From an uncultured Pseudomonadales bacterium (lineage in GTDB: Bacteria; Patescibacteriota; Microgenomatia; UBA1400; UBA1396), in the NCBI GenBank assembly GCA_964447905.1, contig CAYUUK010000008.1:1-62751 (forward strand): a DNA stretch of 62,751 nucleotides, in the 5' to 3' direction. This document shows, one piece after another, positions 46,656-61,302 of the stretch (positions within the stretch are counted from its first letter, which is position 1; each line of letters starts with the position of its first letter). The notes beneath the pieces were generated by a model. The model saw only the letters and a program-made list of their open reading frames with translations. It did not search any database and was not told where the DNA came from. The position numbers were made by a program, and so were the translations under genes.

Positions 46656-46941
46656 TATATTAATATTAACGCACAATATAAGTTTAAGTATATTATTAAC
46701 GCAAATTAGTAATAATTTGAAAAGAAATCAAAACGGGCAGGTGAGGGAGCATCGTGATTGTTTCTTGGCTTTGTAGGAATGGTGGGTTGGCGGAGCGTAT
46801 GTGACTCCAAATTTCTTACCAGTCTAAATAGCCTGGAGAGCGAGACCAAGTTCATTGGAAAATGAATAAAAACACGATAATAACCCAAAAACAAAAGAAC
46901 AAAATAAGGTAAGTGATACGTAAGAAAAAAATAAGAAAAGA

Positions 46942-47898
46942 TTGAATCCGAAGTCTATTCGACAAAATGGCAGGAAAGTCGCTTTGGGTTTTTCTCCGTT
47001 TTTTATGAGCACAGATTCTCTTGCATTGGCTGAAGGCTTCCTACTCGGGTTGGATGATGGTTTCACCACTGAGTTCAAAATCCTTGTGAAGGAGACAGGT
47101 GTGCTTCATCTGGTAGCCGCGAGCGGAGCTAACCTGGCTTTCCTCGAGAGCCTGCTCATTCCGTACTTCTTTTTCTTGGGTTTTAAGGGAAAGAAAATTG
47201 TTTTATTTGTTTTTGTATTAGCATATTTTTTCATTGTTGGAGAAAGCGGGTCGCTCTGGCGGGCGCTCGTTATGTGGATTTTAGCCTGGACGGGACAGTG
47301 GTGTGGTCGACGCACATCGCTCGGCATCCTGCTTTTCCAGGCTGTGGTGTTTACAGCGATTTTTGCAACAGAGTTGCTTTCATCAGCGAGCTTTTGGCTT
47401 TCTTGGCTTGCCATGGTGGGAATGTGGTTTTCTTGTCAGGTGAATATTCGTGAAAAATATTATCGCTTTTCTCCGAACTGGAAAAAATATGTTTTTTTGA
47501 ACCAACAGTCGTTTTTTGTTGGTTGGTGTATTTTGTGGTTGGTCTCGCTATGGCTGTGGACTCAGTACGAAGTATTTCAGCCGCAAGGCATCGTAGTCAC
47601 TATGGGTATCGAGCCGTTCATTCCGATCTATATGGTGGTTGCGGTTTTTTGGAAGTGTTTCCATTTTTTGAGCGAGTTGTTGCCCGGGCCCGTTTTTGCA
47701 TTCGCCGAGATGGGTGCGGTGCAGTTTTTAGATTTTTTGTTTTTGCCAATTCACTGGTGGCTGAGATTGTGGCGGAGTGCGATGGCGTCGCGGGGAGTAG
47801 GACCGGCAGTGCAGTCGGCAATTGTCCTATTCGGCACAACGCTGCTTTTCCGAAATCTCACAGAGTTACGAAAGTGGCGACAAAGACGAACTTCATGA
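46942..47898 (+). CDS. comEC: ComEC/Rec2 channel (Competence) domain protein, N-terminal part of a split comEC
   Basis: TGVLHLVAASGANLAFL and surrounding TM helices match the ComEC Competence-domain motif (H-L-x-A-I-S-G-x-H). No DUF4131/OB-fold region precedes it. The ORF stops at 47896-47898. Confidence 0.7.
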   Translation: MNPKSIRQNGRKVALGFSPFFMSTDSLALAEGFLLGLDDGFTTEFKILVKETGVLHLVAASGANLAFLESLLIPYFFFLGFKGKKIVLFVFVLAYFFIVGESGSLWRALVMWILAWTGQWCGRRTSLGILLFQAVVFTAIFATELLSSASFWLSWLAMVGMWFSCQVNIREKYYRFSPNWKKYVFLNQQSFFVGWCILWLVSLWLWTQYEVFQPQGIVVTMGIEPFIPIYMVVAVFWKCFHFLSELLPGPVFAFAEMGAVQFLDFLFLPIHWWLRLWRSAMASRGVGPAVQSAIVLFGTTLLFRNLTELRKWRQRRTS

Positions 47899-47926
47899 AA
47901 TTTGTGAAAGTTGTGAAAAGAGAACT

Positions 47927-48790
47927 GTGAACATAATCACCAGCAACACACCACACCGTATTTTATTGCAACTGTGTTGTTTTATGGCCGTGATTTCAAT
48001 TTTACTTGGTACTTTTGTGATTCTTACAATACCGCCAGAAATAGAAGTCACTGCTTGCGACGTAGGGCAAGGTGACGCGACACTCATTCGTTACGGTCAG
48101 TCATATATTTTGATCGACACGGGTCCAAATTCAGCCGTTCTACGCTGTCTCCAGAGGAACGTATTTTGGTTAGATAGAACTCTCGACGCAGTCGTGCTCA
48201 CGCATCCCGACAAAGATCACATTGGTGGCTGGGAAACAGTGCAGCAGCACTATGCTGTTTCACAGCTATTCACAAATGGTCAATCAGACAACCCAGAGTA
48301 CACATCTGGAAAGAATGTCGCTCATACCGGAGACCTCTTCAAGTTCCCAGGCTTAAATGCCAGCATCGTATGGAGCGCAGATGCGTATGATGTTCTCGCT
48401 AACTCTGGAGAATCAGAGGAAGAGAGAAATCAAAGATCCGTGGGTTGGTATATGTGGAGTAACTGTTTCGGGTTTTTAAGCCTCGGAGACCTAGAGTGTG
48501 CCCAGGAATTAGCAGTCACTGGTAATAGACTGCTAAGTTTCGTGAGTCTTTTAAAAGTGTCGCATCACGGGTCAAAATCGTCTACTTGTGAGAATTTTCT
48601 CCAAAAAATACAAACCGAAGCGGCTCTGCTCTCTGTTGGCAAGAATAATTCCTATAATCATCCAGATAAAAATGTCCTTATTAGCCTGGAGAAGTATGGA
48701 GTTGTTGTCTATCGAACCGACAAGTATGGGGAAATTCATATTTTTCCTCACAGCAAAACATGGTGGACGGTTTTGAGAGAGAGACCTTAA
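47927..48790 (+). CDS. comEC: ComEC C-terminal metallo-beta-lactamase domain protein (separate ORF)
   Basis: One TM helix, then TACDVGQGDATLI...ILIDTGP, VLTHPDKDHIGG and LKVSHHGSKSS (MBL motifs). The ORF is open from 47822 in a different frame from the upstream part. The GTG at 47927 is the first start after the upstream stop. Confidence 0.7.
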   Translation: MNIITSNTPHRILLQLCCFMAVISILLGTFVILTIPPEIEVTACDVGQGDATLIRYGQSYILIDTGPNSAVLRCLQRNVFWLDRTLDAVVLTHPDKDHIGGWETVQQHYAVSQLFTNGQSDNPEYTSGKNVAHTGDLFKFPGLNASIVWSADAYDVLANSGESEEERNQRSVGWYMWSNCFGFLSLGDLECAQELAVTGNRLLSFVSLLKVSHHGSKSSTCENFLQKIQTEAALLSVGKNNSYNHPDKNVLISLEKYGVVVYRTDKYGEIHIFPHSKTWWTVLRERP

Positions 48791-48926
48791 GGCTTGTTAG
48801 TGACGAGAGCTGCCTACATTTATCTTGATGATGCGAATAAAACACGAATAATTTATCTTTGCGTTTCCTACGGGTAGGTGTTTTTTTGGAAACTAAAAAG
48901 AATCTTATAAAAAAACAAAAAAGTCT

Positions 48927-50210
48927 CTATCGACTATCATTTAAAAATAAAAAATACGTTACAAAAAGTATGATGAAAAAACCGCTCAACTGAGTATATA
49001 AATAATGATCCAGGCTAAAAATAGGTGATAGGAGCAGTATTGTCATGAATATTTTAGGGTAATTAAATTGTACAATAATTGAAAAAGCGAAGAGTAAAAA
49101 TATTGTCCAAAATCCATTTTCTAAAGCGAAAATTACCCAAACATTGTGAATGGGCTGTAAGAAGCCTGGTTGCAGCAAGGCTCTTTCTCGAGGAGTGTAG
49201 ACAGCTATGTGTTGATTCCAGCCTGTTCCCCAGGGGTGGGAACAAAGTTCTTGCAAACCAATCGTTGTAAGAATTTGTCGTCGTTCGAGTGATGAAACGT
49301 CAACAAAGTTTCGGGTATAGAGATGAGTAGAGGACAAAAATGGGAGAAGACTCAGGAAAATTCCCATGAGGACAGCGAAAAGGGCGATTTTTTTTGGCGA
49401 TTGTTTGAAAATCCAAGGGAAACCGATACACAAGGCAGCGGCAATCCAGGCAGATACGGACTCGGTCAGGAGCAAAACTGAGAAAAACAAGATGAATCCA
49501 GAGATTCTTGCTATTTGTGAGACGTATTTTTTAGAAAAGTGAAGTACATAGATGCCTAGCACCATCCACCCAGCCAAGATATTTGGGTGCGGGGTTCCTC
49601 CATACGGCAGTACTCGAGATTCTAGCCAGAAATTACTGGTAGTTAACAGATTTTTATATAAAAATACTGGTTCTCCGAAGAGCCAGTACGGGGCAATATT
49701 TATTTGAAACACAAACTGGAGGAGTCCGAGTATCGCTTGTAGTGAAATACCAGAGAGAAGTCCGAGAATGACCAGGCGGGGAGATGGTTTTTTTCTCCAG
49801 AGGTACACACCAAGAAGGACCGGACCGAGCACCAGAGTTGCGAGCCAAATAAAAGCGGGCCAGGGGTGAGCACTCCATATTTGTCGCAAAATCAGCATTC
49901 CGACTCCAATAAGGAGAATCCATTGCTTCCAATGAATCTGAGAAAACCGAAATTGCGGCCTTTGAAGCGGTTTTCCTCTGTTAGCAAGTCTGGAAATACC
50001 GGTAAAGAGCCACAGAGTGGCAATAAGCACTTGAGAAAGATACATCTTTGGGGCCCAGTAGTCGATGAAGCGACTATCAAGATAGGACCATTCCGGCTTG
50101 AAAACAAGGAAGACGTTCAGTGAAAGAGAGGAAAGTGATGCAAATAGTAATACTAGTTGTGCTTTATGTATAAATTGATGTTTATTTATATACTTGTTTA
50201 TACTTATCAT
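48927..50210 (-). CDS. Wzy_C (O-antigen ligase-like) polytopic membrane protein, AT-rich gene
   Basis: ~11 TM segments with HPWGTGWNQ...LQPIHNVWVIFALENGFW, which fits the G-x-G...H-N-x-x-L-x-x-x-x-E-x-G pattern. Confidence 0.7.
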   Translation of the reverse strand: MISINKYINKHQFIHKAQLVLLFASLSSLSLNVFLVFKPEWSYLDSRFIDYWAPKMYLSQVLIATLWLFTGISRLANRGKPLQRPQFRFSQIHWKQWILLIGVGMLILRQIWSAHPWPAFIWLATLVLGPVLLGVYLWRKKPSPRLVILGLLSGISLQAILGLLQFVFQINIAPYWLFGEPVFLYKNLLTTSNFWLESRVLPYGGTPHPNILAGWMVLGIYVLHFSKKYVSQIARISGFILFFSVLLLTESVSAWIAAALCIGFPWIFKQSPKKIALFAVLMGIFLSLLPFLSSTHLYTRNFVDVSSLERRQILTTIGLQELCSHPWGTGWNQHIAVYTPRERALLQPGFLQPIHNVWVIFALENGFWTIFLLFAFSIIVQFNYPKIFMTILLLSPIFSLDHYLYTQLSGFFIILFVTYFLFLNDSR

Positions 50211-50301
50211 TATATTTACTCACTTTGATATGCCTAATCGGGTCCAAAAGGAGGGAACTGAACGTTGTTTCTCGAGCCATCTGGCGGTACAATGCCGAGA
50301 C

Positions 50302-51576
50302 ATGCAGTATTATGTTTCCACCCTTCCCAACAATCTTACCGTACTTCGAGTGGCTATGCCGGGAGTGAAAAGTGTGACCGCTTTGGATCTCGTCAATACG
50401 GGTCGCCGGTATGAAGACGAAAAGTTTGCGGGTATTTCGCACTTTTTGGAACATATGGTCTTTAAAGGTACCGACAAATATCCAACTGCACAGGATGTTG
50501 CGGCTGCTATTGATGGTGTGGGTGGAGAGTTCAATGCCTTCACTGGCAAAGAATATACTGGCTATTACGTAAAATTAGCCTCACGATTTTTGGATACCGC
50601 GCTCGATGTGGTTACCGATATGCTTTGTGTGCCGGCGCTGCGTCAAGATGATATCGATCGAGAGTCTGGTGTGATCGTGGAAGAAATCAATATGTATGAA
50701 GATATGCCCATGCGGCAGATTCATAGCATTTTTGATGAGCAGGTTTTTGCGGGTTCCAATTTGGCTGGTCCAATCTTGGGTCGTAAAGAAGTAGTCACCG
50801 CATTGAAGAGTGATGACTTCAAAAACTATATGAATGAGTGGTATGGCTTCGGCAATGTGGTGTTCATTGTGGCCGGCGATGCCGATGTGGTGAGCGACGA
50901 AGGATTGGTGGAAAAAATTGGTCAGCTGGTAGAAAAGGGTGGAAAAGAGCGAGAATCCTCATCTCAAAAACCTTTCTACACTGCAAAATATTCTGACAAT
51001 CGAAAACAAATTGTCTATAAAAAAACCGAGCAAGCGCACTTTAAAATGGGCTTTCCGGCGTTTGGTCGTACTGATGAGCGCAAGTACGCGATGAGCATTT
51101 TAGAAACCCTCATGGGGACAACCATGAGTTCACGCCTCTTTACCGAGATCCGTGAGAAACGCGGATTGTGTTACTACGTCAAAGCCGACATGGATTACTA
51201 CCAAGATGTTGGTGTCTTCACTGGATACGCCGGCGTAGACCCGAGTAGAGTGAACGAAGCTGTGGAAACCATGAAGAATGAATTAATGGCTCTAGTAAGT
51301 GAAAAACCAGCAACTGAACAAGAAGTTGACTCAGCAAAGCGAAACGTCATTGGACAGTTGGCTTTAGAGTTAGAAGACTCGCAAAGTGTGGCGATTTGGT
51401 ACGGCATGAAACAGCTCTTGCAAGACGGCATTGAAACCGAAGAAGAGTTGGTCAAAAAGATCGAAGCGGTAACCTTGCAAGAAGTGCAAGAATTAGTAGG
51501 CGATATTATTCGTGAGGATGCGCTGCATTTTGCTTTGATTGGGCCGTTCAAAGAGGCCGACATTACAGCACTCTAA
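50302..51576 (+). CDS. M16 family (insulinase/pitrilysin-like) zinc peptidase
   Basis: GISHFLEHMVFKGT (inverted zinc motif HxxEH), followed by the downstream E of the M16 signature and typical M16_C sequence. The start is set at ATG 50302; the ORF is open from 50194. Confidence 0.85.
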   Translation: MQYYVSTLPNNLTVLRVAMPGVKSVTALDLVNTGRRYEDEKFAGISHFLEHMVFKGTDKYPTAQDVAAAIDGVGGEFNAFTGKEYTGYYVKLASRFLDTALDVVTDMLCVPALRQDDIDRESGVIVEEINMYEDMPMRQIHSIFDEQVFAGSNLAGPILGRKEVVTALKSDDFKNYMNEWYGFGNVVFIVAGDADVVSDEGLVEKIGQLVEKGGKERESSSQKPFYTAKYSDNRKQIVYKKTEQAHFKMGFPAFGRTDERKYAMSILETLMGTTMSSRLFTEIREKRGLCYYVKADMDYYQDVGVFTGYAGVDPSRVNEAVETMKNELMALVSEKPATEQEVDSAKRNVIGQLALELEDSQSVAIWYGMKQLLQDGIETEEELVKKIEAVTLQEVQELVGDIIREDALHFALIGPFKEADITAL

Positions 51577-51629
51577 AAAGCACAGTACAATACAGACAGA
51601 AAAGACAGAGAGAAAAAGAAAGGACGTTC

Positions 51630-52094
51630 ATGGAACAGTCAGTAGTCTTAGTCAAACCAGATGGTTTGCAACGTGGTTTGATCGGGGAGATCATCGCTCG
51701 CTTCGAGCGCAAAGGTTTGAAGTTGGTAGCCATTAAAATGGTCAACTTAGATGACGAAGTTTTGGATGAATGGTACGGTCACCACAAAGAAAAGCCGTTT
51801 TTCCCTAAGCTGAAGGGCTTCATGATGCAGACCCCAATTATTGCGATGGTATGGGAAGGTTTGGACTCTATCGACACTATTCGTAAGCTCGTGGGTGTTA
51901 CCAAAGGCCGCGAAGCTGAAGGTGGTTCGGTCCGTGGCGACTTTGCCATGTCTATGTCCAACAACTTGATCCACGCTTCCGATTCCAAAGAATCTGCCAG
52001 CAAAGAAAAAGGATTGTTATTTGCTGACGAAGAAGTGTTTGAGTACGTCAGTGCTCTCGATATGCTGGTCTACAGCGAAGAAGAGCGCGAGTAA
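51630..52094 (+). CDS. ndk: Nucleoside diphosphate kinase
   Basis: EQSVVLVKPDGLQRGLIGEIIARFERKGLKLVAIKM and the active-site NLIHASDS. Confidence 0.95.
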   Translation: MEQSVVLVKPDGLQRGLIGEIIARFERKGLKLVAIKMVNLDDEVLDEWYGHHKEKPFFPKLKGFMMQTPIIAMVWEGLDSIDTIRKLVGVTKGREAEGGSVRGDFAMSMSNNLIHASDSKESASKEKGLLFADEEVFEYVSALDMLVYSEEERE

Positions 52095-52110
52095 GTTTTT
52101 ACACCGCGTA

Positions 52111-52147
52111 AAAAAGAAAGTGAGGGGGAAGACCCCTCACTTTTTTT
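52111..52147. terminator. Bidirectional rho-independent terminator between convergent genes
   Basis: An A-run, then the AGTGAGGGG-GAAGA-CCCCTCACT hairpin, then TTTTTTT. Confidence 0.7.
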
Positions 52148-52160
52148 GCTGTTTTTTCAT

Positions 52161-52538
52161 TTAACGAGTAAGTTTTTTTTCAACTCGGCTGGTAAATTCG
52201 GCCATGGTAACGCCGCGATCCTCAAAGAGTTTTTTCAAGATTGGATTCAAGTAGGTTGCGTTTCTCAGGGATATTGTTGTGGCTGGGATAGCTCCACGGT
52301 TCGAAGGGGTTGTAATTTCAGAAGCAAGTATACATAGGTATAATTCAATAGCTTGATCAAGTAGATCTTCAGTAAATACTTCATCTTCAGAGTATCGCTC
52401 GGCTATTTCCAGAATGAAGGGTTCTACAGCAAGCAAGTTTTGTCCTGATATAAACTCAGGAAGATCTTGAATTTCTTGCGCAAGTTGTCCTGCTGATAAG
52501 CTGGCGAGCTCGGTTGTTGTTTTTTCTGGTGTTGTCAT
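52161..52538 (-). CDS. Hypothetical soluble protein (125 aa)
   Basis: The start is set at the ATG behind AGGAG (MTTPEKTT...), downstream of the EamA stop. No family recognised. Confidence 0.5.
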   Translation of the reverse strand: MTTPEKTTTELASLSAGQLAQEIQDLPEFISGQNLLAVEPFILEIAERYSEDEVFTEDLLDQAIELYLCILASEITTPSNRGAIPATTISLRNATYLNPILKKLFEDRGVTMAEFTSRVEKKLTR

Positions 52539-52566
52539 GTTCGCTCCTAACGTTTTCGCCAGTGTA

Positions 52567-53616
52567 TCATGTTTTTTTCTTTTTCCTCTTTCGGTTTTTC
52601 TGCCGCAACTGTTTCCAGCGCATTTCACCGACAAGTACGCCGATCGCAATGGTGATCACGGCCAAGAGCATCGGCCAGGTGACGCGTTCATCTAACAAGA
52701 GGGTGGCAAGGGGGATGGCCACGAGCGGTTGCAGATAGGTGAACAAACTTGCTTCCGAGGCCTCAATGCCATCTTGCCCCCAGATGTACGCGGTCAGTCC
52801 AATTATGGAGCCAAAGAGGGCCATGTAGAGCGCTGGCCAGAGAACAGTGGCCTGGGAAAGTTCGCTAATGGCTGTATTCAACAAAGTCGGAGCCGACACG
52901 CTCAGCTGCCACATGCTTAAAGCAATAAAGCTTACGATTCCTACATAAAAGCTGACACTGGTCGCGAAAAATTTTGGAATGCCGCGGTAGTATTTTTTCG
53001 CTAAAACGTAGTACGCCGCAATTGCGATATTTTGCAAAAAGACGAGCAGGTTTCCGCTCAACGAAAACGTGGCGTGGGCACTGCGGCCAGTAAGTAGTGG
53101 TTCGAGCGCGAGTAAGACCGTGCCAGCGAGGGCAATGGCCAATCCAATCCATTCGTGGCGCTCTTCTTTTTCGCGCAGGTAGAGAATGCCGCCCAGCGTG
53201 GTAAAGAGTGGCGTGGTGGCGGCAATCAGGCTGGCTTCTAGCGAAGAGGTACGGGCGAGTCCAGAGTAGAGTAAACCGAGAGCAACGGTTGTTCCCAAAA
53301 GTTCCAAGACCACGATGACTGGTATTTTCTTAATGAGGGCGCGTTGTTTCCAGAGGTAAAATCCTAAAATCGGCAACGAAAACAGGGCCGCAAAAGCAAA
53401 GCGGTACAGTAAAAATTGGAAAGGAGTGGTGGTGGTAAACGCCGGTTTCGAAATAGGTAGGGCCGCGCCCCAGACCATCGTGTTGAGGAGGAGGAGGGCG
53501 ATTGATGGCCAGCGGGTGTGAGAAGTTTGCTTTTTCACTCTGGAATCATTGTACGGGGTTGGATATGATTTGTCAGAGAGGAAGCGAAATGCCAAAAGAT
53601 ACAGGAGATGTTTCAA
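52567..53616 (-). CDS. EamA/DMT-family transporter
   Basis: Ten hydrophobic segments in two halves, with typical N-terminal LLLLNTMVWGAALPISK and EamA-like repeats. The exact start is uncertain, because the ORF start overlaps the divergent gene. Confidence 0.75.
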   Translation of the reverse strand: MKHLLYLLAFRFLSDKSYPTPYNDSRVKKQTSHTRWPSIALLLLNTMVWGAALPISKPAFTTTTPFQFLLYRFAFAALFSLPILGFYLWKQRALIKKIPVIVVLELLGTTVALGLLYSGLARTSSLEASLIAATTPLFTTLGGILYLREKEERHEWIGLAIALAGTVLLALEPLLTGRSAHATFSLSGNLLVFLQNIAIAAYYVLAKKYYRGIPKFFATSVSFYVGIVSFIALSMWQLSVSAPTLLNTAISELSQATVLWPALYMALFGSIIGLTAYIWGQDGIEASEASLFTYLQPLVAIPLATLLLDERVTWPMLLAVITIAIGVLVGEMRWKQLRQKNRKRKKKKT

Positions 53617-54371
53617 GTGTTGAAGGTGGCTTCATCAGTCGAGAAGAAGAAGGAGATCTTTCTTCTGAAGACTTGCGTGTGAAACGACTCTTACAAGAGT
53701 GGGCTATAAAAACTGAAGTGTCATTTGATTTTTCTCGGGGAGGGTTGAAGAATAAAGTCGATAATCTATCAATTATTTCTCCTGCGGTGAAACAAGCATT
53801 GCAAAGTCCAGACAAACTAACGGATCAGCTCATTCAAGAGTTGGGAGAGACACTTCTGGGTACAAATTACAAATTATTGACAAGTAAAGTACTGCGGAAA
53901 CAGTTAGCAGAGTTAGGCAATCTTTTTTTTCGTATTCAGGTGGATCATACACTTCCTAATACCACATATAAAGAGAATCATCAAAAGAAGAAGGCGATTG
54001 TTTTAGCTATTTTTGAAAAAGCAGGACAAGAAATCGTGGATATTTTATTGACAGGAGAATCATTGCAGGTGAGTTTGCAAGAGTTTTCGAACAGTTATTT
54101 CCCGACCGTTATAGCTAATCTCAATTTTACATTAGAGCATGCTATTGCTGGAAATGAGGAAGTTTGTCGTGAGGTAATCCAAAAAATTCAGGATTTTAAG
54201 CAAACTCTAGATGCTCGCGGGAATATTTTAGTGCGAAAACAAGATCTGGACACAATACAAGAATTTCTCGATCTTAGTATACAAGTGAGATTTCAATCTT
54301 CTGGCGGAATACGAGTAGACTTTAATCAAGAGGAGTATCAGAAAGCTGTTGCAATGCTCAAGAGTGTCTAG
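53589..54371 (+). CDS. Hypothetical soluble, helical protein (260 aa), AT-rich
   Basis: The start is set at the ATG behind GAGGAAG (MPKDTGD...). No family recognised. Confidence 0.5.
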   Translation: MPKDTGDVSSVEGGFISREEEGDLSSEDLRVKRLLQEWAIKTEVSFDFSRGGLKNKVDNLSIISPAVKQALQSPDKLTDQLIQELGETLLGTNYKLLTSKVLRKQLAELGNLFFRIQVDHTLPNTTYKENHQKKKAIVLAIFEKAGQEIVDILLTGESLQVSLQEFSNSYFPTVIANLNFTLEHAIAGNEEVCREVIQKIQDFKQTLDARGNILVRKQDLDTIQEFLDLSIQVRFQSSGGIRVDFNQEEYQKAVAMLKSV

Positions 54372-54541
54372 AGACCTGATTGATGTTCTATTTCCTCGTA
54401 AAGGGAGTAAGAAGAGTGGGCCATACCTGCAAGACCGTTTGGTCAAATTTTTCTAACCAGTTCATCATTGTAGCCAAAACTCTTTCCCAGTGAGATGGTT
54501 CCATTCCTGCACCCGTTTGCGCCCCAAGCACGCTACCTTCT

Positions 54542-55450
54542 TCATAAAAAATGAGTTGCGCGGTGGTGGTGGAGCCGAGCGCGGGGGCTTGGTTCAGGTG
54601 GGCGGTCTGTGAGGTCGGTATCTACCAGGAGTGTGTTGGACGTTGGGGTTTCGGCTTGGGCTTGCGGGGCAATATCTTCGATTGATTCCGGCAGAATTAA
54701 GTAAGAAACTGACGGAAATTCTTTGAGCACATCTGTGCCTCGGCCGTCATTGGCCAAGACACGGGAGGAGGGGAGGAACTCAATCTGTGTAACTCCCGGC
54801 TCTTTGGCCCGGAAAAAGACAGTGGCAAAAACACCACTCTCTTCAGAGTAGCCAGGATTGGGGAGTCCGCCGGTTAAGCGTGCCCAGCCAACTTCGTTGT
54901 TCATTTCTTTCTGGATGAAAATACTGGCGAAAGAATTCTCGGTTGAGATATCAACGACTTCTACTTGACTGGGGTCAAAGCCAATATCGGCTTGAACGGC
55001 GTTGATAGTGGTAGGCAAATCAGTTAGCTCGATCTTCATGGAAAACACTTCGCCCAAAAGATACTGTCCACGAGTGGGGATGCGGAAGGTGGCGGTTTGG
55101 GCAGAGGTTTGCCAGGTACTGCGGAAGAGTAGTTGGTTTTCGAGGAAAACAAAGCCGATTGAAAGCACCGACATAACAGCAATAACCGCACTGTTCACCA
55201 GCACCGAGCGTAAATTTTGTGGTGTTTGTGTGCCGGCGTGTTTTTTGTGAATGCGGTGATTGCAGGCCCAACACTTCTCCCCGTCTTCGCGCATGCGGCA
55301 AAAGAAGCAGACTGTTTTGGTGGGCATAAAGAGCCACCAAATCGGATACGCGAGGGCCATGAAGAAGCCAAACAACGCTAAGCCGTGCACAATGAGCCAA
55401 GAAACCGCTAAAAACACTACTGCGCTAATGAGGAGTCTTGCAAATTTCAT
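54542..55450 (-). CDS. Membrane protein with a Cys4 zinc-ribbon loop and an extracellular cohesin-like domain
   Basis: Two N-terminal TM helices, CFFCRMREDGEKCWACNH, a third TM helix, then VFSMKIELTDLPTTINAVQADIGFDPSQVEVVDIS...GWARLTGGLPNPGYSEESGVFATVFFRAKEPGVTQIEFLPSSRVLANDGRGTDVL. This matches the pattern of non-cellulosomal cohesin domains. Confidence 0.7.
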   Translation of the reverse strand: MKFARLLISAVVFLAVSWLIVHGLALFGFFMALAYPIWWLFMPTKTVCFFCRMREDGEKCWACNHRIHKKHAGTQTPQNLRSVLVNSAVIAVMSVLSIGFVFLENQLLFRSTWQTSAQTATFRIPTRGQYLLGEVFSMKIELTDLPTTINAVQADIGFDPSQVEVVDISTENSFASIFIQKEMNNEVGWARLTGGLPNPGYSEESGVFATVFFRAKEPGVTQIEFLPSSRVLANDGRGTDVLKEFPSVSYLILPESIEDIAPQAQAETPTSNTLLVDTDLTDRPPEPSPRARLHHHRATHFL

Positions 55451-55463
55451 ATATCAATATTTT

Positions 55464-56264
55464 TTAACTCTCTACATAGTATAGAAGAACCGAGAAGTCT
55501 TGCGTATTGCAGGTTTCGTCTTGGTTGAGGTCGCAGGTTTTTTCGGTGGTATTTGTGTTGGGAGTTTGACGAGACGATTCTAGTGGAAAGTTTGCGGGTG
55601 AGGAGTTACGAGTTGAAGGCGACAGGGAAGAATCAGAGAGCGCCACTTTTTTCCATTCTTCTACCCAAGTAGAGATCACCGGTTCTAATTGTGTTCGTGG
55701 AATGGCATTGGGAGTGGACGCGACACCATTACGCTGTAAAACGGGGGAAATTAAAGTGAGAAGTGGTGGTGGCAGGGAAGGTCCGGAAGGTTGAGGTTGA
55801 GCAGGTGCTGGTTGCAAAAATGGTAAGGAAAAGAGTCGATTGACGATTGGTGTGACGGTGGGAGTTGGAGTGGCTGCGTCACTGGGTGTTTGAGAACTAG
55901 AGTCTGGTGTAGGTTGTGGGCTCGGCGACTGGGTGGGTTCTGGAGATGGCGTCGGGGGAGGAGTTGGAAGAGGTGTGGGTGTTGGAGTGGGTGGTATGCA
56001 GTTGCTGGTGTCGAAGGAGCAGGCGGTATCGCATGTGAGCGAGCCGCTAGCGTACCCTATGCTGGTGCAGCTCTGGGAGTTGAGGTTTGCACTTTCGCAG
56101 TCCTCTGGGCCTTCAATTACGCCGTCACCGCAGACACTCAGGCGAACAGTTGTATCGATAGTTGTGGCAGCCGTTTGTGCTCGGATTTGCCAAGCGAAGG
56201 TGCAGGAAATGGTCGCCATAACTGCAACTGCACTAAACCGGTAAAAAAGATGAGTCGTGTTCAT
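55464..56264 (-). CDS. Secreted Cys-rich-repeat / Pro-Thr-linker protein with a C-terminal dockerin-like segment
   Basis: Signal peptide. CGDGVIEGPEDCESANLNSQSCTSIGYASGSLTCDTACSFDTSNC is a myxococcal-type Cys-rich repeat pattern. A long PTPTPTPLPTPPPTPSPEP linker follows. The C-terminal CDLNQDETCNTQDFSVLLYY fits a single dockerin/EF-hand-like D-x-N-x-D-x3-N-x2-D-x3-L segment. Confidence 0.6.
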   Translation of the reverse strand: MNTTHLFYRFSAVAVMATISCTFAWQIRAQTAATTIDTTVRLSVCGDGVIEGPEDCESANLNSQSCTSIGYASGSLTCDTACSFDTSNCIPPTPTPTPLPTPPPTPSPEPTQSPSPQPTPDSSSQTPSDAATPTPTVTPIVNRLFSLPFLQPAPAQPQPSGPSLPPPLLTLISPVLQRNGVASTPNAIPRTQLEPVISTWVEEWKKVALSDSSLSPSTRNSSPANFPLESSRQTPNTNTTEKTCDLNQDETCNTQDFSVLLYYVES

Positions 56265-56932
56265 TCATCCTGATCTTCGGAAGCGTGTTTTTTTGCATCG
56301 GAAGAGTGGGTAGAGGATGAGTTCTTTTTTGATTTTTTAGCTGGTTTTTTGAGATCGATCTCGATATTGAAATATGTCTTGAAAAGGATGGCAGCTGCCG
56401 CGGCCACCAAAACAATCAAGGCGCGTTGTGGCCAGGGAGCATACACATTCCAGAAAGAAATCGCGCGGTAATACATGCCTACCAAAACGTTGGCGGACTC
56501 GACTGAGAAGAACAGTTTGGACGCTGCGGCAATGCCGATACTTGCTTCACCTTCGGCTCCATTGCGTTTGGTAGGAGAGGCTTCTAGGTAGGTAAAATAC
56601 TCGCCTGGTTCTGTGCGGAAAGGTAAGTTCAGTTTTACGTCCACATTTTGAACTTGACCGGGTTCTAGTTCAAAACTTCGGGGAGAAAAGGCAAACCAGT
56701 TTTCGGGAGGGCGCAGCTCTGGCTGGTCTTCATGGTAGGCAATACTGACTTCATAGGTGGCCGTTTCGTCGCCGGTATTGAGAACTGTGAAGACCGGCAA
56801 AGAGTAGATGGTGCCTGGTTTTAAAACTTCATCGACTGTAATTTTTCCGGTACCGACACCGACGCCAACAGTCGCCAGAGCCATACTTGGTACGAAGAGA
56901 AGGGTTAAGAGGAGAAGAACGATTTTTTTCAC
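56261..56932 (-). CDS. Membrane-anchored surface protein with a CARDB/NEW3-like (DUF916-like) beta-sandwich
   Basis: Signal peptide, then LKPGTIYSLPVFTVLNTGDETATYEVSI...FELEPGQVQNVDVKLNLPFRTEPGEYFTYLEA, a C-terminal TM helix and a Lys-rich tail. It overlaps the downstream gene by 4 nt. Confidence 0.65.
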   Translation of the reverse strand: MKKIVLLLLTLLFVPSMALATVGVGVGTGKITVDEVLKPGTIYSLPVFTVLNTGDETATYEVSIAYHEDQPELRPPENWFAFSPRSFELEPGQVQNVDVKLNLPFRTEPGEYFTYLEASPTKRNGAEGEASIGIAAASKLFFSVESANVLVGMYYRAISFWNVYAPWPQRALIVLVAAAAAILFKTYFNIEIDLKKPAKKSKKNSSSTHSSDAKKHASEDQDE

Positions 56933-56968
56933 AGCGGTCCCAGTATATCAGCTCAGGCAAGCTTCGTT

Positions 56969-57518
56969 TTATGATGACGAAGCTTGCACCGTGATGTCGG
57001 CAGATTGCTGGTCAAAGCTCGTTGAAGAGCTGGGGGTGTTGATCTGCAGATCGAAATCTTGGGTGCCGCTGGCGGAAACTCCGGAAGCGAGGGTTTGGTA
57101 GCTAGTGGTGAGGGCGGTCCAGCTGGGGGGAGCTATCGCAGTCTGTAGTACAGAAATCGTGTTTGTATTGGTCGGCGCCAACACTAGAGGCTAAGGTCCA
57201 GTCAGCAGTATCTTGGCCGCGAATGTTGAAGTCTACTGATACGTTTCCGTCGTTGGTGGCGGATTGTGAATCGTCTAAATTGCCAGAAGTTGTGTCGTTG
57301 GTAGAGCTCGTAGAGAGAATGCCGTAGGCCACAGAACCGTCACTTACCGACACAGAAATGTTCTGCACAGTAACGGTAGCGGTGACCGTGGCGGTGGTGG
57401 CAGCAGAGGTTGGCAGGACCGGAGCTATGAGACCAAGCGCCAAAAGAAAGAGGGTTCCTGCTGCGTAGCCAGTCGATTTTTGGGCGGCTTGTTTTTTGAT
57501 CGTAAACGATACTTTCAT
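56969..57518 (-). pseudogene. Secreted beta-rich protein interrupted by a frameshift at a C6 (plus-strand G6) tract; paralog of the C-terminal domain of the 658-aa protein
   Basis: ORFs 57102..57518 and 56969..57184 overlap in different frames. Both halves align to consecutive parts of ...DWFFGGSVGYKSYIQEFSTNAGTNWTSF...DFDIRLQVP...TFTVTVQA in the upstream gene. Removing one G from GGGGGG at 57125-57130 restores a 182-aa ORF. Confidence 0.6.
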
Positions 57519-57669
57519 ACTTCTCCTTTTTTAATGAGACATCACTCTTTGGCCAGTAAACACAAAAAAATGGATCGAGTCAAGTGAATTTGTTTTGGTG
57601 TTATAGGTTGCTTAGTCAAGAGGCCATAATTCCTCTCACTTACCAAGAGCAGGAAAAGAAATCCATTTT

Positions 57670-59646
57670 TTACGGCTCAACCGCCTGCACGGTTACCGTA
57701 AATGTTTGTTCGTTGGTGTTATCAACTTCGGTAGGTACCTGCAAACGAATATCAAAATCAATGGTGTCGCTGTCATTTACGTCTTCGGCGAGTGTGTAGT
57801 AGGTGTCCGCGTCGGCAAAAGAAGTCCAGTTGGTACCAGCATTCGTGGAGAATTCTTGGATATAACTTTTGTATCCCACCGATCCGCCAAAGAACCAATC
57901 CTGCGTTTTGGTGGTTTTGATGTTAATGGTTGCGCCGGAATCACCGTCGTATTGCAGGGTTTGGGTGTCGGACAGATCGAGCGTGCTGATGGTATCGCCC
58001 AAGCCAACGCTGCCAAAAGCAATCACGCCATCGCTCGTAATGCTCACCGATACACTTGGTGGATCAGTAGCCGTGGCTTTGATGAGGATTTGTGCACCAG
58101 AGCCACTCGGAGCTTGGTTGGAAACGTATCCAGTGGCCGTGGAGGTAAAGGTGGGCTGTACCGAGCCAGAACCAGCGGTAATGCGCGAACTCACCACTTC
58201 TAGAGTCATGTCGTTGCCCACATCTGAGCGGCGAATGGTGTCCTGCGTGACTTCCCCAAAGGTGAAGCCGCCTTGGCTAAATGCGTGGTTGGAGTAGGTG
58301 TACTCATCAGTGTTGATGGAGCTCATGGCCAGGAAGAGGTCGCCCACTGCACCGGTTCCGGGTGCACCCCAATAGTTGAGTTGCCACGTGGTGCTGATCT
58401 GCCAGTGACCACCAAAGCCACCAGCGAATGACCACTCGTCGGCGTAGTCTCGGTGTACGGCCATGATTTGTCCGACAGCGGTATTTGGATTCGACGAGTT
58501 GAGCGTGATGTTATAGGTGCCGGTTTTAATGGCCGATACTTCTTGGTAGTGAATAGTAGTCTGCGAGCTTCCAGAATCTTCACCTAATCCATTGCCATAG
58601 CCACCGGAAGCTAAGTGCGTCCAGCCGTCGACTTGGATGGATCCACTCGGCCGGTGGCCGATAAACAGCACGAGCATGTCACCGACTTCATGCTCGGGGT
58701 ACGGAATCGAGAGTGAAGTAGTGCCGGTGACCGACGGTCCCATCCCGCGAATCCATAAGTCACTGCGATTATCGCCGGCACCTTGGCGAATTCGTAGAGC
58801 GGAGATGACGCCTGAAACCGCACTCGACTGCGCGAGTGAGATCGTGGGAGTAGTGCTGCTTGTACCGGACCACACTAGGTTTGAGGCTACGCCTATTTCT
58901 AGGTCGTTACCGGTGTCGGTGGAAAATTCACGGTGTTCGTTGACCGTGCTTTTGAGATTGATACCGGTGGCAGAAAAGTTCCAGCCAGAAGTGTTAGAAA
59001 GGTCGCCATTTTGAGCGGCGGCGAAGAGGACTGCGTCGTCTTCGGTGAGGCCGATATCGGTGTCAAGGGTGCCGTTCCAGGTGGTAGTATCGCTATTTTT
59101 GCTGTAACCGCCGGCCGAGACGTCGTAGGTACCGGTGGCTGAGCGAGCGCGGGCAATCGAGCCTCCCCACACCGAAGTAGTGCCACTTTCTGTAAATGTT
59201 TGCGTGCCCAAACCCTCGGTGCCATCGGCGACTTTGTAAAACCAGTAGTAGCGCACCGAGCCAGTATCTTCGCCTTCGCTGCCGCCGTCATTGGCGGTCC
59301 AGGAACCAGCGGAACTCCAGCCACTCGGCGTGTTGACGGTGCTGGTGGACGGACGAATAGCGATGGAGGCAACCATGAGGTCGCCATCTTGTGGGTCAGG
59401 ATAGGTGAGTGCCAGGTCACTATCACCGGTGCTTGACCAGTAGGAGGCTGGAAAGATACCGACGACCGGGTCGTGCGCCGCCTGTGCTTCGGGCACATTT
59501 TCCATGGTGAATTTGAGCGGTGTATCTTGCAGCGCTGGCGACCAACTGAAGAAAAGGAGTCCGCTCACCAAGAATAGAAAAATCAGGTGATTCAAAATGT
59601 TTTTGACTTTGGCGGAGGCGGAGCGCATGTAGGGAGAGTATAACAA
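57670..59646 (-). CDS. Large N-terminally anchored surface protein (658 aa)
   Basis: N-terminal TM/signal anchor (LNHLIFLFLVSGLLFFSW). The body is Gly/Ser/Thr/Trp-rich. The C-terminal ~130 aa are homologous to the downstream frameshifted gene. Confidence 0.7.
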   Translation of the reverse strand: MLYSPYMRSASAKVKNILNHLIFLFLVSGLLFFSWSPALQDTPLKFTMENVPEAQAAHDPVVGIFPASYWSSTGDSDLALTYPDPQDGDLMVASIAIRPSTSTVNTPSGWSSAGSWTANDGGSEGEDTGSVRYYWFYKVADGTEGLGTQTFTESGTTSVWGGSIARARSATGTYDVSAGGYSKNSDTTTWNGTLDTDIGLTEDDAVLFAAAQNGDLSNTSGWNFSATGINLKSTVNEHREFSTDTGNDLEIGVASNLVWSGTSSTTPTISLAQSSAVSGVISALRIRQGAGDNRSDLWIRGMGPSVTGTTSLSIPYPEHEVGDMLVLFIGHRPSGSIQVDGWTHLASGGYGNGLGEDSGSSQTTIHYQEVSAIKTGTYNITLNSSNPNTAVGQIMAVHRDYADEWSFAGGFGGHWQISTTWQLNYWGAPGTGAVGDLFLAMSSINTDEYTYSNHAFSQGGFTFGEVTQDTIRRSDVGNDMTLEVVSSRITAGSGSVQPTFTSTATGYVSNQAPSGSGAQILIKATATDPPSVSVSITSDGVIAFGSVGLGDTISTLDLSDTQTLQYDGDSGATINIKTTKTQDWFFGGSVGYKSYIQEFSTNAGTNWTSFADADTYYTLAEDVNDSDTIDFDIRLQVPTEVDNTNEQTFTVTVQAVEP

Positions 59647-59720
59647 GTTTTTCGCTTCGGTTTTTAAGATGGAACTGTTTTATAATCCGCCCACACAGAA
59701 AAGTAGTAAGAGAAAGAAAT

Positions 59721-60002
59721 ATGCCGGAAAATGAGAGAGATAGTATCAATATCGATGCACCCGCAGCAAAATACACGCTAGTTGTAAAGCAGGTTATACC
59801 GAACATAAATATTGGCGCTACTACTGTGATTTGTACAGTTCCAGGTAGAAATGAGCTGAGAAGTTTTTGGTTTACTGTGGATTCTTTTCCCAATACTCCA
59901 ATCACCTATGAAAGAATACAAGCGCTTCAGCCGGGACAAAAAATACAGCTCGAAAATGCAGTAGACAGCGGCATTCCTGTTGCAGTTCATGGGTTGCGGT
60001 AA
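59721..60002 (+). CDS. Hypothetical protein (93 aa)
   Basis: ORF only, in an AT-rich region. No family recognised. Confidence 0.4.
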   Translation: MPENERDSINIDAPAAKYTLVVKQVIPNINIGATTVICTVPGRNELRSFWFTVDSFPNTPITYERIQALQPGQKIQLENAVDSGIPVAVHGLR

Positions 60003-60049
60003 ATGTATTCTTTGAAGCCAGGTAATTTTGCCCTATTCTCAAAAATCCT

Positions 60050-60595
60050 GTGATACAATCTCCAAATATGACACTTACAGCCGAAATTATGCGATCTCAA
60101 TCTGAAATGATGTTTGATTCCAAAGCTCGGGACTCTGATGTTTCTCACTTGAATCGTGAGCAGCTACAAGATTATTTAATTGCCTGTATGACCGGACAGG
60201 AGTTTTCGGTATACTTCCGTATAGATTTTTTAGTGAGTAGTACTCGATTTGATGTAGAGCGTAACTGGGGAAGTAGTATGGGAAGATTACTGCATTTTGC
60301 TTCTTCGAATGAAGCGGCAGAAAGAGATTTAGATGCCGACTTTCCGTCCAAGTTGTATCATGTTCTTTTTGTGTTTTTAAGAGAGATGATCGCTGATCCC
60401 GAAAATATGCTCGATTTTGTTCTCCTGACCGACGGAACCTCAGGGCCCGGTATCGACGCTGAGTGGAGAGCGCGTTTTGTGAGTGCAATGGTAAAAGGTG
60501 TTTTAGAGTTAGTTGCAGGTGTTGTCCATTGGGATGGCGGTGAGCAAAGTATTCATAGCGAACTCGCTCAATTAGTAAGTGATATGAGCACTTAG
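60050..60595 (+). CDS. Hypothetical protein (181 aa)
   Basis: ORF only. An alternative start is at the ATG at 60068. No family recognised. Confidence 0.45.
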   Translation: MIQSPNMTLTAEIMRSQSEMMFDSKARDSDVSHLNREQLQDYLIACMTGQEFSVYFRIDFLVSSTRFDVERNWGSSMGRLLHFASSNEAAERDLDADFPSKLYHVLFVFLREMIADPENMLDFVLLTDGTSGPGIDAEWRARFVSAMVKGVLELVAGVVHWDGGEQSIHSELAQLVSDMST

Positions 60596-60740
60596 AACCC
60601 AAGACAACCTCTTGACCAGGAAGCGCTTAGACGAGCGTTTGCCACAGCAGGTAGTGGTTTTAATGCTGATCAGCTCGGACTCTTACACTTAGCAGCAGAA
60701 CTGAAGCGTCATCCTAAAATACAAATGCAAATGCAGGAAT

Positions 60741-61244
60741 ATGCTAGAGAGTTTATGGCGCTACAACAGTATTTTGATAAGATTATGCCGAGATAAACTT
60801 GAAGTAAGCCAAAGCAAAGAAAATGAGGATGTATGCGTCTTAGAAATACTTTTTGGTCGTAGAGATGGTTTCCAAGAGGCACCGCTTAAAGAAGAAACAG
60901 CCGCTGCAGAGAATGTCGAAGCAACTCCTACGATTATAGAGATTGATGGTACTTATTATGAAGATCTTGATGGTGGCTATTTCGATCGATTCGATAGAGA
61001 TGAGCGAGAAGCTGCTTTAGAAGAAACTTCGCGAACATATGGTATTACTGCGAGTGGAGATTGTTTGCATCAATTAACACAAGAACAATTGGTGTTTTTA
61101 GCGAAGAAAATTTTTAAAAATGCAAATATTGACTTTGTTGTGTTAAAGAAGACAAGAAATGAAATGGATGGTTGGGATGACTGGACTCACGACTGCGTTC
61201 GCCCCCGTTTATACCCATTAGGGTGCTCACTTCGCATGCACTAG
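60741..61244 (+). CDS. Hypothetical acidic protein (167 aa)
   Basis: The ORF is followed by a strong terminator. The start is uncertain. No family recognised. Confidence 0.4.
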   Translation: MLESLWRYNSILIRLCRDKLEVSQSKENEDVCVLEILFGRRDGFQEAPLKEETAAAENVEATPTIIEIDGTYYEDLDGGYFDRFDRDEREAALEETSRTYGITASGDCLHQLTQEQLVFLAKKIFKNANIDFVVLKKTRNEMDGWDDWTHDCVRPRLYPLGCSLRMH

Positions 61245-61265
61245 GGTTATCTCGCATGTATGTAT

Positions 61266-61302
61266 AAAAAGGACGATCCTTCATGGAAGGTTCGTCCTTT
61301 TT
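61266..61302 (+). terminator. Rho-independent terminator
   Basis: AGGACGATCCTTC-ATG-GAAGGTTCGTCCT (13-bp stem, one mismatch) followed by TTTTT. Confidence 0.7.

Follow-up and report, generated by a model that had tools for sequence, protein, structure and literature searches.

The Candidate Phyla Radiation (CPR) comprises ultra-small bacteria that live as epibionts and are mostly uncultured; little is understood of the way in which they attach to their hosts. The Pam pili of Candidatus Mycosynbacter amalyticus were shown by cryo-electron microscopy to be donor-strand filaments, and PamA is the second most abundant protein of this organism. The pam operon encodes PapD-like chaperones that carry a transmembrane (TM) helix at the C-terminus, as well as an anchor protein that has an additional strand at its N-terminus, and distant Pam homologues are reported in Microgenomatia (bioRxiv 10.64898/2026.03.03.709456). 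To this group belong the closest relatives of a 62.7-kb stretch of DNA (the window, by which we mean the whole stretch) that carries, on its minus strand at 54542-59646, the five-gene module studied here. We name its genes, and the proteins that they encode, P1 to P5 in operon order.

A comparable arrangement is found in the WxL or Csc clusters of Firmicutes (PMC10599100, PMC1534035), which consist of a small WxL protein, a large WxL protein and WxLIP (DUF916, DUF3324 and a TM helix), and for which AlphaFold2 (AF2) predicts that a strand of WxLIP inserts into WxL (PMC10599100). Chaperone-usher pili, Pam pili and, in static form, WxL complexes all use beta-strand complementation, the principle that we propose for the module.

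On balance we think it probable that the module builds a thin cell-surface fibre by beta-strand complementation, with the composition P1-(P2)n-P4; P3 would help to assemble it, and P5 would be its dock. One immunoglobulin (Ig)-like domain is common to P2 and the C-terminus of P1, and it always lies at the extreme C-terminus of the protein; P3 is modelled with a PapD-like fold and a C-terminal TM helix; and profile matches assign a cohesin to P5 and a dockerin to the P4 family. Four of the five module proteins have no Pfam family, despite the 1433 clusters in which the P2 domain occurs. If our reading is right, the module would be a candidate for a major attachment fibre of Microgenomatia and Parcubacteria, with the P1 heads as determinants of host specificity. 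The Pam principle would then cover a simpler architecture as well, cohesin-dockerin pairs would have a new biological use, and comparative data would be at hand for asking whether chaperone-usher pili, WxL complexes and CPR pili have a common origin.

Layout of the locus and proposed mechanism

The five genes are arranged as follows.

57670-59646, minus strand: P1, 658 amino acids (aa) from a TTG start, or 652 aa from an ATG at 59628
57102-57518, minus strand, with 56969-57184 in another frame: P2 as read, 138 aa plus 71 aa
56261-56932, minus strand: P3, 223 aa
55464-56264, minus strand: P4, 266 aa
54542-55450, minus strand: P5 as read, 302 aa

An earlier reading of the window, made from the sequence only, had described five same-strand open reading frames (ORFs) here, separated by gaps of 151, 36 and 13 nt and one 4-nt overlap, and the coordinates agree with it in both respects. 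It had also taken gene 2 for an intact ORF of ~182 aa and gene 5 for an intact gene ending at 54542. Neither holds: gene 2 is divided into 138 aa in one frame and 71 aa in another, and gene 5 is frameshifted, its stop codon lying at 54388-54390. Profile searches of the five proteins against Pfam, NCBIfam and PHROGs gave nothing above threshold except the cohesin. A promoter and terminator scan of 54000-60300 was uninformative, the sites being no more numerous than expected by chance, and a search with the family profiles found the five genes and no second copy of the module in the window.

In the mechanism that we propose, all five proteins would be exported by Sec. The membrane-tethered P3 would cap the incomplete Ig fold of new subunits by means of its conserved last strand. 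P1, which combines a variable head with an acceptor domain and has no free donor strand, would start the fibre as its distal tip or adhesin, and P2 would then polymerise, each N-terminal strand (ATVTATVTVQN) inserting into the preceding subunit. P4 would terminate the fibre by inserting its own P2-like N-terminal strand; its Pro/Thr linker would span the wall, and the fibre would be clipped to P5, an integral membrane protein, by binding of the P4 dockerin to the P5 cohesin. The P2 extension, the N-terminal strand of P4 and the last strand of P3 all show strictly alternating hydrophobicity. We propose a one-to-one assignment of the five parts: chaperone (P3), shaft pilin (P2), tip adhesin (P1), terminator and tether (P4) and anchor (P5).

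Judged by analogy, the Pam pilus is the closest mechanistic relative of the module. Both systems are CPR-specific and Sec-exported, the latter by prediction for the module, and have neither usher nor ATPase. Both would consist of Ig-like subunits in which a truncated C-terminal Ig domain is filled by the strand of a neighbour, which for the module is our proposal. Pam has, and the module according to our model of P3 would have, a PapD-like chaperone whose C-terminal TM helix keeps it in the membrane, and the terminator or anchor with an extra N-terminal strand is PamR there and, as we propose, P4 here. The two systems differ in that PamC and PamD have two domains and P3 one, and in that the major Pam pilins are two-domain proteins (N-terminal domain, linker strand, C-terminal domain) whereas P2 amounts to the strand and the C-terminal domain. 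PamR has a TM helix of its own, whereas the module employs a dockerin protein and a cohesin membrane protein; the Pam preprint mentions neither cohesin nor dockerin (bioRxiv 10.64898/2026.03.03.709456). Finally, the Pam neighbourhood is linked to ATP synthase genes, whereas the module has no conserved neighbours. This comparison is one of descriptions; PDB entries 25PZ and 25QA were not among the matches in the PDB copies searched. Since membrane-anchored PapD-like chaperones and donor-strand pili have already been described in CPR, as Pam, the novelty of the locus is smaller than the sequence-only reading assumed: the module is a variant of a recently recognised kind and not categorically new.

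The chaperone-usher pili of diderm bacteria (Fim, Pap, Caf1, Csu) share with the module the PapD-like chaperone fold predicted for P3. Their subunits resemble P2 in being Ig-like, with an amphipathic N-terminal extension, a C-terminal pilin domain and an intradomain Cys pair, and their two-domain tip adhesin resembles P1, with a binding head followed by a pilin domain. In contrast to them, the module has no usher and no outer membrane, its putative chaperone is single-domain and membrane-anchored, and the tether would be a cohesin-dockerin pair.

The module is conserved across Patescibacteria

To place the locus among related genomes we scanned one genome per species with the P3 profile, which gave 79 loci from Patescibacteria genomes other than that of the window. 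Their sources include Daviesbacteria, Levybacteria, WWE3, Dojkabacteria, Roizmanbacteria, Woesebacteria, Pacebacteria, Moranbacteria, Komeilibacteria and Nomurabacteria. According to profile searches of the six-frame ORFs of these loci, nearly all have one gene order: a large protein with a terminal P2-like domain is followed by P2, P3, a P4 homologue and a P5-like cohesin protein. In 71 of the 78 loci with enough downstream DNA the start of the P4 homologue lies no more than 150 nt from the end of P3, a P5-like cohesin protein follows within 4.5 kb in 61 of 70, and both a small and a large P2-domain gene lie upstream in nearly all loci.

When all neighbouring ORFs of 81 loci were clustered, only four families, all of the module, proved to be conserved, being present in 75, 81, 72 and 66 loci. 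No further neighbouring family occurred in more than 6 of these loci, and no usher, sortase, signal peptidase or ATP synthase was found beside the module in this set. Because the order is conserved and no other flanking family is, the five genes form a self-contained module that moves between genomic contexts. The order is strongly non-random. The co-conservation of the five families, in the same order, in about 80 Patescibacteria loci supports the sequence-only reading where it saw an operon for a non-covalently assembled surface complex or appendage with a cohesin/dockerin pair. The homologues found for P3 (361) and P2 (371) all come from Patescibacteria wherever their source is named.

Several loci depart from the common layout. 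The loci of the closest P1 relatives, L002 (8010-13508) and L003 (7482-12981), have four head repeats or two tandem P1 genes; their module is without P5, their P3 ends in two extra TM helices and not in a Lys-rich tail, and a signal-peptide protein with a Pro/Thr linker, a weak P4 match, lies upstream instead of downstream. In L033, L040, L049 and L056 the large P2-domain gene is on the opposite strand, divergent from P2-P3-P4-P5; its co-transcription with the rest is therefore not required. The P2-P3 pair or P3 alone is tandemly duplicated in L048, L071 and L077, and in L077 the whole P2-P3 pair occurs twice with identical lengths and scores, which may represent an assembly repeat. The distant loci of Parcubacteria type (L038, L043, L046, L047, L055, L065-L068, L073-L075, L080, L082 and others) have a P4 of ~350 aa and, in place of a single P5, two cohesin-related genes of ~300 aa and ~580 aa. 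Many contigs with the module (L004, L015, L026 and others) are labelled 'uncultured Gammaproteobacteria', 'Pseudomonadales' or 'Bdellovibrionales' in third-party annotation assemblies; these labels are probably taxonomic mislabels of CPR bins.

P3, a candidate membrane-anchored chaperone

The two features of P3 on which the proposal draws are the following.

56261-56932, minus strand: P3, with a signal peptide, one PapD-like sandwich, an interfacial helix, a TM helix (residues 167-187) and a Lys-rich cytoplasmic tail
56501-56527, minus strand: last beta-strand of P3, residues 136-144 (IAAASKLFF), proposed complementing (G1-like) strand

The AF2 model of P3 has a predicted local distance difference test score (pLDDT) of 82 and consists of one beta-sandwich (residues 24-144) and two helices, of which the first (149-163) is aromatic and interfacial and the second (167-187) spans the membrane. 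Because the Lys-rich tail follows the TM helix, the sandwich should face outward. A Foldseek search of the PDB with this model returned 207 matches at E<=1e-3, led by Caf1M (6e-7) and followed by DraB, FaeE, SfaE, SafB and FimC. Eukaryotic PapD-like ASH/MSP domains (OCRL-ASH, HYDIN) are also among the leading matches, and for Caf1M, DraB, FaeE, SafB, FimC, OCRL-ASH and HYDIN the E-values are 6e-7 to 1e-5 and the probability is 1.00. The list further includes the 2026 structures of the WxLIP of E. faecium, both alone (9i1y, 8.8e-6) and bound to a long WxL protein (9i25). A PapD-like fold with a C-terminal TM helix, as modelled, describes P3 better than the CARDB/NEW3-like sandwich by which the sequence-only reading had identified it.

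Sequence comparison does not place P3 in the chaperone-usher chaperone family. PapD_N is matched weakly and below threshold in 22 of 47 P3 homologues (best E 5.9e-4), alongside fn3_5 and NEW3, and none of the 47 matches PapD_C; with a sub-threshold PapD_N and a single domain, P3 does not belong to the PapD_N plus PapD_C families. The P3 family profile found nothing meaningful among PDB sequences. One P3 homologue is named 'P pilus assembly chaperone PapD' by its source.

The most conserved segment of P3 is its last strand (iGvAAAaKLYFTV), in which A135, A136, A137, L140 and F142 are invariant. It follows a loop of low pLDDT (121-135), and its hydrophobic residues alternate strictly. Of two conserved lysines, K30 (first strand) is invariant and K139 (last strand) at least 90% conserved. 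In PapD, Arg8 and Lys112 hold the C-terminal carboxylate of the pilin, and we take K30 and K139 to be the parallels of these two residues. We propose that P3 is a membrane-anchored chaperone.

P2 and the C-terminus of P1 share a putative pilin-like domain

The features of the two putative fibre subunits are as follows.

56969-57518, minus strand: P2 restored, ~182 aa, with a signal peptide (cleavage TSA/A), an N-terminal strand and an Ig-like domain; proposed shaft pilin
57360-57401, minus strand: mature N-terminal extension of P2, ATTATVTATVTVQN, residues 40-53; proposed donor strand
57673-58053, minus strand: C-terminal P2-like Ig domain of P1, extending to the last residue (A3 profile positions 36-172, E 2e-20)
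58075-58776, minus strand: P1 head repeat 2, the same ~230-aa domain as repeat 1 (alignment A1)
58777-59472, minus strand: P1 head repeat 1, with the motif PDPxxGDLMVAxIAIRPS...TPSGW (alignment A1)
59542-59598, minus strand: hydrophobic segment of P1, residues 17-35; signal peptide or membrane anchor, from its sequence

That P2 is a paralog of the P1 C-terminus, as the sequence-only reading had it, is confirmed by BLASTP (E 1e-14, 34% identity, 129 aa). An exhaustive search of 1.84 billion representatives found the P2 domain in 1433 representative clusters and in two architectures only: it either stands alone in a protein of ~170 aa or forms part of a larger protein, where it ends 1-3 residues before the C-terminus. 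The same rule of terminal position is obeyed by the pilin domain of chaperone-usher pilins, which docks its C-terminus in the chaperone cleft. The P2 family (371 homologues) has no Pfam family, and its profile found nothing meaningful among PDB sequences.

In the family alignment the P2 extension reads, almost without variation, A-A-x-T-A-T-V-T-A-T-V-T-V-Q-N, its hydrophobic residues strictly alternating, and the Ig-like domain contains an invariant CxxxC and an invariant W in the motif WTL. The W-x-L tripeptide to which the sequence-only reading had drawn attention is hence a family feature, T and L being at least 90% conserved. The AF2 model of the intact P2 homologue P0164 has a pLDDT of 85.5 and leaves the N-terminal extension as an unpacked coil of low confidence. 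Foldseek matches of this model are led by chaperone-usher pilins (CsuA/B, FimA, PapA, PapE, FimG and CS20, with E-values of 9e-3 to 0.2), PapE reaching a TM-score of 0.50 and a probability of 0.97. No WxL chain is among the 50 matches listed, all of which are weak.

P1 fits both the A1 and the A3 family profiles. Its two head repeats are 27% identical (BLASTP E 5e-9), and this type of head is limited to 39 proteins, all from CPR, and to 6 fetched loci; at the other loci, heads of 150-1400 aa that differ from it are joined to the same C-terminal domain, so that the head is the variable part. P1 has no match in Pfam, NCBIfam, PHROG or PDB sequences. In 28 members of the P1 family scanned against Pfam the head domain is unclassified, and the M23 peptidase was alone in being matched, in two N-terminal fusions. 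In these fusions, the Dojkabacteria proteins P0030 and P0037, the P1 head domain stands behind an M23 peptidoglycan peptidase and an unrelated region of ~300 aa, which hints that the head may target a ligand of the cell wall or of the host envelope. We propose that P1 is the tip or adhesin subunit.

The sequence-only reading had P1 anchored by its N-terminus, which is uncertain. An AxA motif (AQA/A at residue 55) is conserved directly before the start of the conserved domain, 'T.P.VGFFSP' in alignment A1, and its position suggests that P1 may be cleaved there by signal peptidase.

P4 and P5, a candidate dockerin-cohesin pair

The elements of the putative terminator and of its anchor are listed here.

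55464-56264, minus strand: P4, with a signal peptide, a strand (residues 30-44), a six-Cys module (45-89), a Pro/Thr linker and a C-terminal dockerin
56133-56177, minus strand: mature N-terminal strand of P4, QTAATTIDTTVRLSV, family consensus atvkiSvCG; proposed donor strand plugging the last subunit
54388-55450, minus strand: P5 restored, ~353 aa, with two TM helices, a zinc ribbon, a third TM helix, a cohesin and a conserved C-terminal helix
55262-55309, minus strand: zinc-ribbon Cys residues of P5 (C48, C51, C60, C63), CxxC...CxxC between TM2 and TM3, cytoplasmic
54788-55054, minus strand: P5 cohesin, residues 133-221 (PF00963), with the strongly conserved core NAVQAD...SFAxIFIQKEINN...RLTGGLPNPG

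The N-terminal strand of P4 has a conserved alternating pattern like that of the P2 extension, and the six cysteines that follow are invariant in the family alignment. In six of the P4 homologues scanned, Big_6 Ig domains replace the Pro/Thr linker. The dockerin-like end seen by the sequence-only reading is well founded for the family and less so for the window: Dockerin_1 (PF00404) is matched at E<=0.01 in 17 of 36 P4 homologues (best E 5.5e-8), with both Ca-binding repeats visible, whereas the window copy scores 14.6 bits against a gathering threshold of 22.9 for Dockerin type I and has its second repeat alone intact. Within the C-terminus of P4 (55476-55700) the first Ca repeat is degenerate, reading QRNGVASTPNAIPRTQLE where the homologues have FDxDGDGKIxxxE. 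P4 is proposed as terminator and tether of the fibre.

For gene 5 the cohesin-like domain of the sequence-only reading stands, PF00963 scoring 32.5 bits against a cut-off of 24.1. The zinc-ribbon cysteines are conserved in at least 90% of 40 aligned homologues. The TM hairpin (55309-55450) carries the pattern SW..H..A..G.F.A.AYP.WWL, in which a His and a number of Trp and Pro residues recur in at least 90% of copies, and is about as conserved as the cohesin core. This conservation suggests that the hairpin may have a role beyond passive anchoring, for example as an assembly platform or in signalling through the zinc ribbon.

Non-cellulosomal cohesin-dockerin pairs resemble the module in having a type-I-like cohesin and Ca-binding dockerins of two repeats, as in the P4 homologues. 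They differ from it in that the cohesin of the module is fused to a highly conserved three-TM zinc-ribbon domain and lies in a pilus-like operon, not with enzymes.

Points against a fibre and state of the window copy

Several observations weigh against a fibre. Polymerisation, strand exchange and P4-P5 binding are steps that we infer from sequence patterns, folds and precedent. No link to WxL or chaperone-usher systems was found for the module proteins at the level of sequence. The structural matches of the P2 model are individually weak, none reaching E<=1e-3 and the TM-scores being 0.3-0.5, and an Ig-like sandwich can resemble many things. P3 is single-domain, in contrast to WxLIP, PamC/D and every known pilus chaperone, all with two domains. 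The hydrophobic N-terminus of P1 lies ~20 residues from the putative cleavage site and could stay in the membrane, which would not fit a tip role. Lastly, two of the five genes are frameshifted in the window, at the following sites.

57125-57130, minus strand: P2 frameshift site, a coding-strand C6 run that, shortened to C5, would restore ...CDSSPSWTALTTSYQ...
54583-54587, minus strand: probable P5 frameshift, a coding-strand C5 run that, shortened to C4, would give ...EPSPALGSTTTAQLIFYEEGSVLGAQ...; we infer the exact site, within a variable linker

The C6 run in P2 is the sole G/C run of 6 or more in the window. At this point the P2 family profile A3 is divided between two frames. With one C removed, P2 aligns end to end with intact homologues of 165-190 aa, and when the joined P2 is compared with the C-terminus of P1 by BLASTP, the alignment crosses the junction without interruption. 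The P2 homologues listed have 151-213 aa and none is truncated like the window copy, in which termination at 138 aa removes roughly the last three of seven modelled strands. In P5, profile positions 269-335, which cover the conserved C-terminal ~65 aa, continue in the other frame at 54391-54621; removal of one C at 54583-54587 gives the conserved tail ...ALGSTTTAQLIFYEEGSVLGAQ... and the stop at 54388-54390. A conserved phase-variation tract at the C run of P2 was considered and rejected, C runs being of 3 or fewer in 36 of 43 homologues and never longer than 5.

The Logan assembly of SRR7048223 is identical to the window over 46261-61297, both frameshift sites included, and a 15.4-kb ORF of the window is uninterrupted although it contains nine G/C runs of 5 or more. 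For these two reasons the frameshifts are at least as likely to be real mutations as sequencing errors. The window copy may thus be inactive, switchable or hit by sequencing errors, and the two frameshifts, taken with the degenerate Ca-binding loop of P4, hint that the module is decaying in this genome.

That the module here is a decaying remnant or is switched off, and that nothing functional is assembled in this genome, is a possibility that we take seriously without thinking it probable. It accounts for the single-C insertions at two C runs, by which P2 loses its last strands and P5 its conserved C-terminal helix, for the loss of one Ca-binding loop in P4 and for a P4 dockerin that, unlike those of homologues, stays below threshold; both lesions recur in the Logan assembly of SRR7048223, and the intact 15.4-kb ORF with its nine G/C runs indicates that indel errors are not rampant. 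However, both lesions lie in homopolymers, the classic site of sequencing errors; P1, P3 and P4 are of full length, and the frames are otherwise ~50-70% identical to homologues and free of stop codons. CCC-C is a known context of +1 slippage, and such slippage might yield some full-length P2.

A static complex or separate functions

The gene logic of the module is that of WxL clusters: in both, a small protein that is the domain only lies beside an Ig-like TM protein and a large protein whose N-terminus varies and whose C-terminus is again that domain. In the main alternative, which we regard as unlikely though worth stating in full, P3 would permanently hold P2 and P1 at the cell surface by strand insertion as in a static WxL-type complex, the P1 head would bind host or substrate, no fibre would be formed, and P4-P5 would serve as an accessory display or tether. 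This identity of gene logic (PMC10599100) argues for it, as do the matches of the P3 model to WxLIP, which include the WxLIP-WxL complex 9i25. A single-domain P3 may be a holder and not a recycling chaperone, and the invariant WTL of P2 is suggestive. A static complex would nevertheless leave the near-invariant amphipathic extension of P2 and the matching strand of P4 unexplained, and the best structural matches of P2 are polymerising pilins, the top 50 being free of WxL chains.

The profile searches also argue against a static WxL-type complex, ~100 family members scanned giving no Pfam signal for WxL, DUF916 or DUF3324. PF13731 (WxL) has no match in P1 or P2 at E<=1 or in 50 P2 homologues at E<=0.5, and PF06030 (DUF916) and PF11797 (DUF3324) have none in P1-P3 at E<=1 or in 47 P3 homologues at E<=0.1. 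P2 has one conserved WTL motif where the WxL profile has a dual W-x-L motif, and WxLIP combines two tandem Ig domains with its TM helix, whereas P3 has the TM helix and a single sandwich. WxL domains are described as peptidoglycan-binding and non-polymeric (PMC10599100, PMC1534035), whereas P2 is proposed to polymerise. The WxL analogy drawn by the sequence-only reading accordingly survives in gene logic and in the predicted fold of P3 (9i1y and 9i25, E ~1e-5) and fails in sequence membership of WxL, DUF916 or DUF3324. The WxL (Csc) clusters of Lactobacillus include a gene for CscD, a small protein with an LPXTG anchor; in the module, genes 4 and 5 encode instead a dockerin protein and a cohesin membrane protein.

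The five genes could also serve two unrelated functions and merely travel together, P1-P2-P3 as an adhesin set and P4-P5 as a separate pair whose task would be to display the Cys-rich module or to recruit further dockerin proteins, as non-cellulosomal cohesin-dockerin systems do. L002 and L003, which keep P1-P2-P3 without P5 and have a weak P4-like gene upstream only, would fit this, as would the distant loci with extra cohesin proteins of ~300 and ~580 aa. We consider it quite improbable: the short distance between P3 and P4 holds in 71 of 78 loci, often with an overlap as here, P5 is retained in 61 of 70 loci, which span many CPR classes and have no conserved flanking genes, and the N-terminal strand of P4 resembles that of P2.

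An S-layer, a sortase-type pilus or a cellulosome-like enzyme scaffold, to which the presence of a cohesin-dockerin pair and a very weak NCBIfam match of P3 to a putative S-layer protein (E 0.044) might point, has an almost negligible probability, given that sortase, LPXTG, SLH, glycoside hydrolase and enzyme domains are absent from the module and its conserved neighbourhood and that there is one cohesin and one dockerin only. TasA/SipW-type fibres, S-layer, sortase pili and cellulosome were all rejected, none of their defining genes or domains being present. As for sortase pili, we found no Pfam match to sortase or LPXTG, no extra conserved gene and no visible C-terminal sorting signal in the module.

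Returning to the fibre of P1-(P2)n-P4, a bolder version of it is possible but doubtful. Under it, nearly all Microgenomatia and Parcubacteria would possess the module as a minimal chaperone-pilin machine without an usher, made up of a one-domain, membrane-tethered PapD-like chaperone, a one-domain pilin and the first cohesin-dockerin anchor of a pilus. It would be the missing link, divergent in sequence, that unites chaperone-usher pili of diderms, WxL clusters of Firmicutes and the Pam pili of Saccharimonadia as one ancient family of surface assemblies by strand complementation, and the hairpin and zinc ribbon of P5 would act as assembly platform or signal transducer and not as a passive anchor.

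Other genes of the window

Elsewhere in the window, a ComEC-like gene at 46942-48790 on the plus strand is split, its 'Competence' and 'Lactamase_B' ORFs overlapping in different frames, and this may be another frameshift of the contig. An ORF of 5139 aa at 24935-40354 on the minus strand lies in a GC-rich block (GC content 0.52-0.57; the first 16 kb have 0.37-0.48, and the DNA downstream of 40 kb has 0.42-0.53). Its N-terminus oddly matches phage-integrase SAM-like domains. F5/8 type C and LamG (Laminin_G_3) domains were found in the C-terminal 2000 residues scanned, and the product is probably a giant adhesin.

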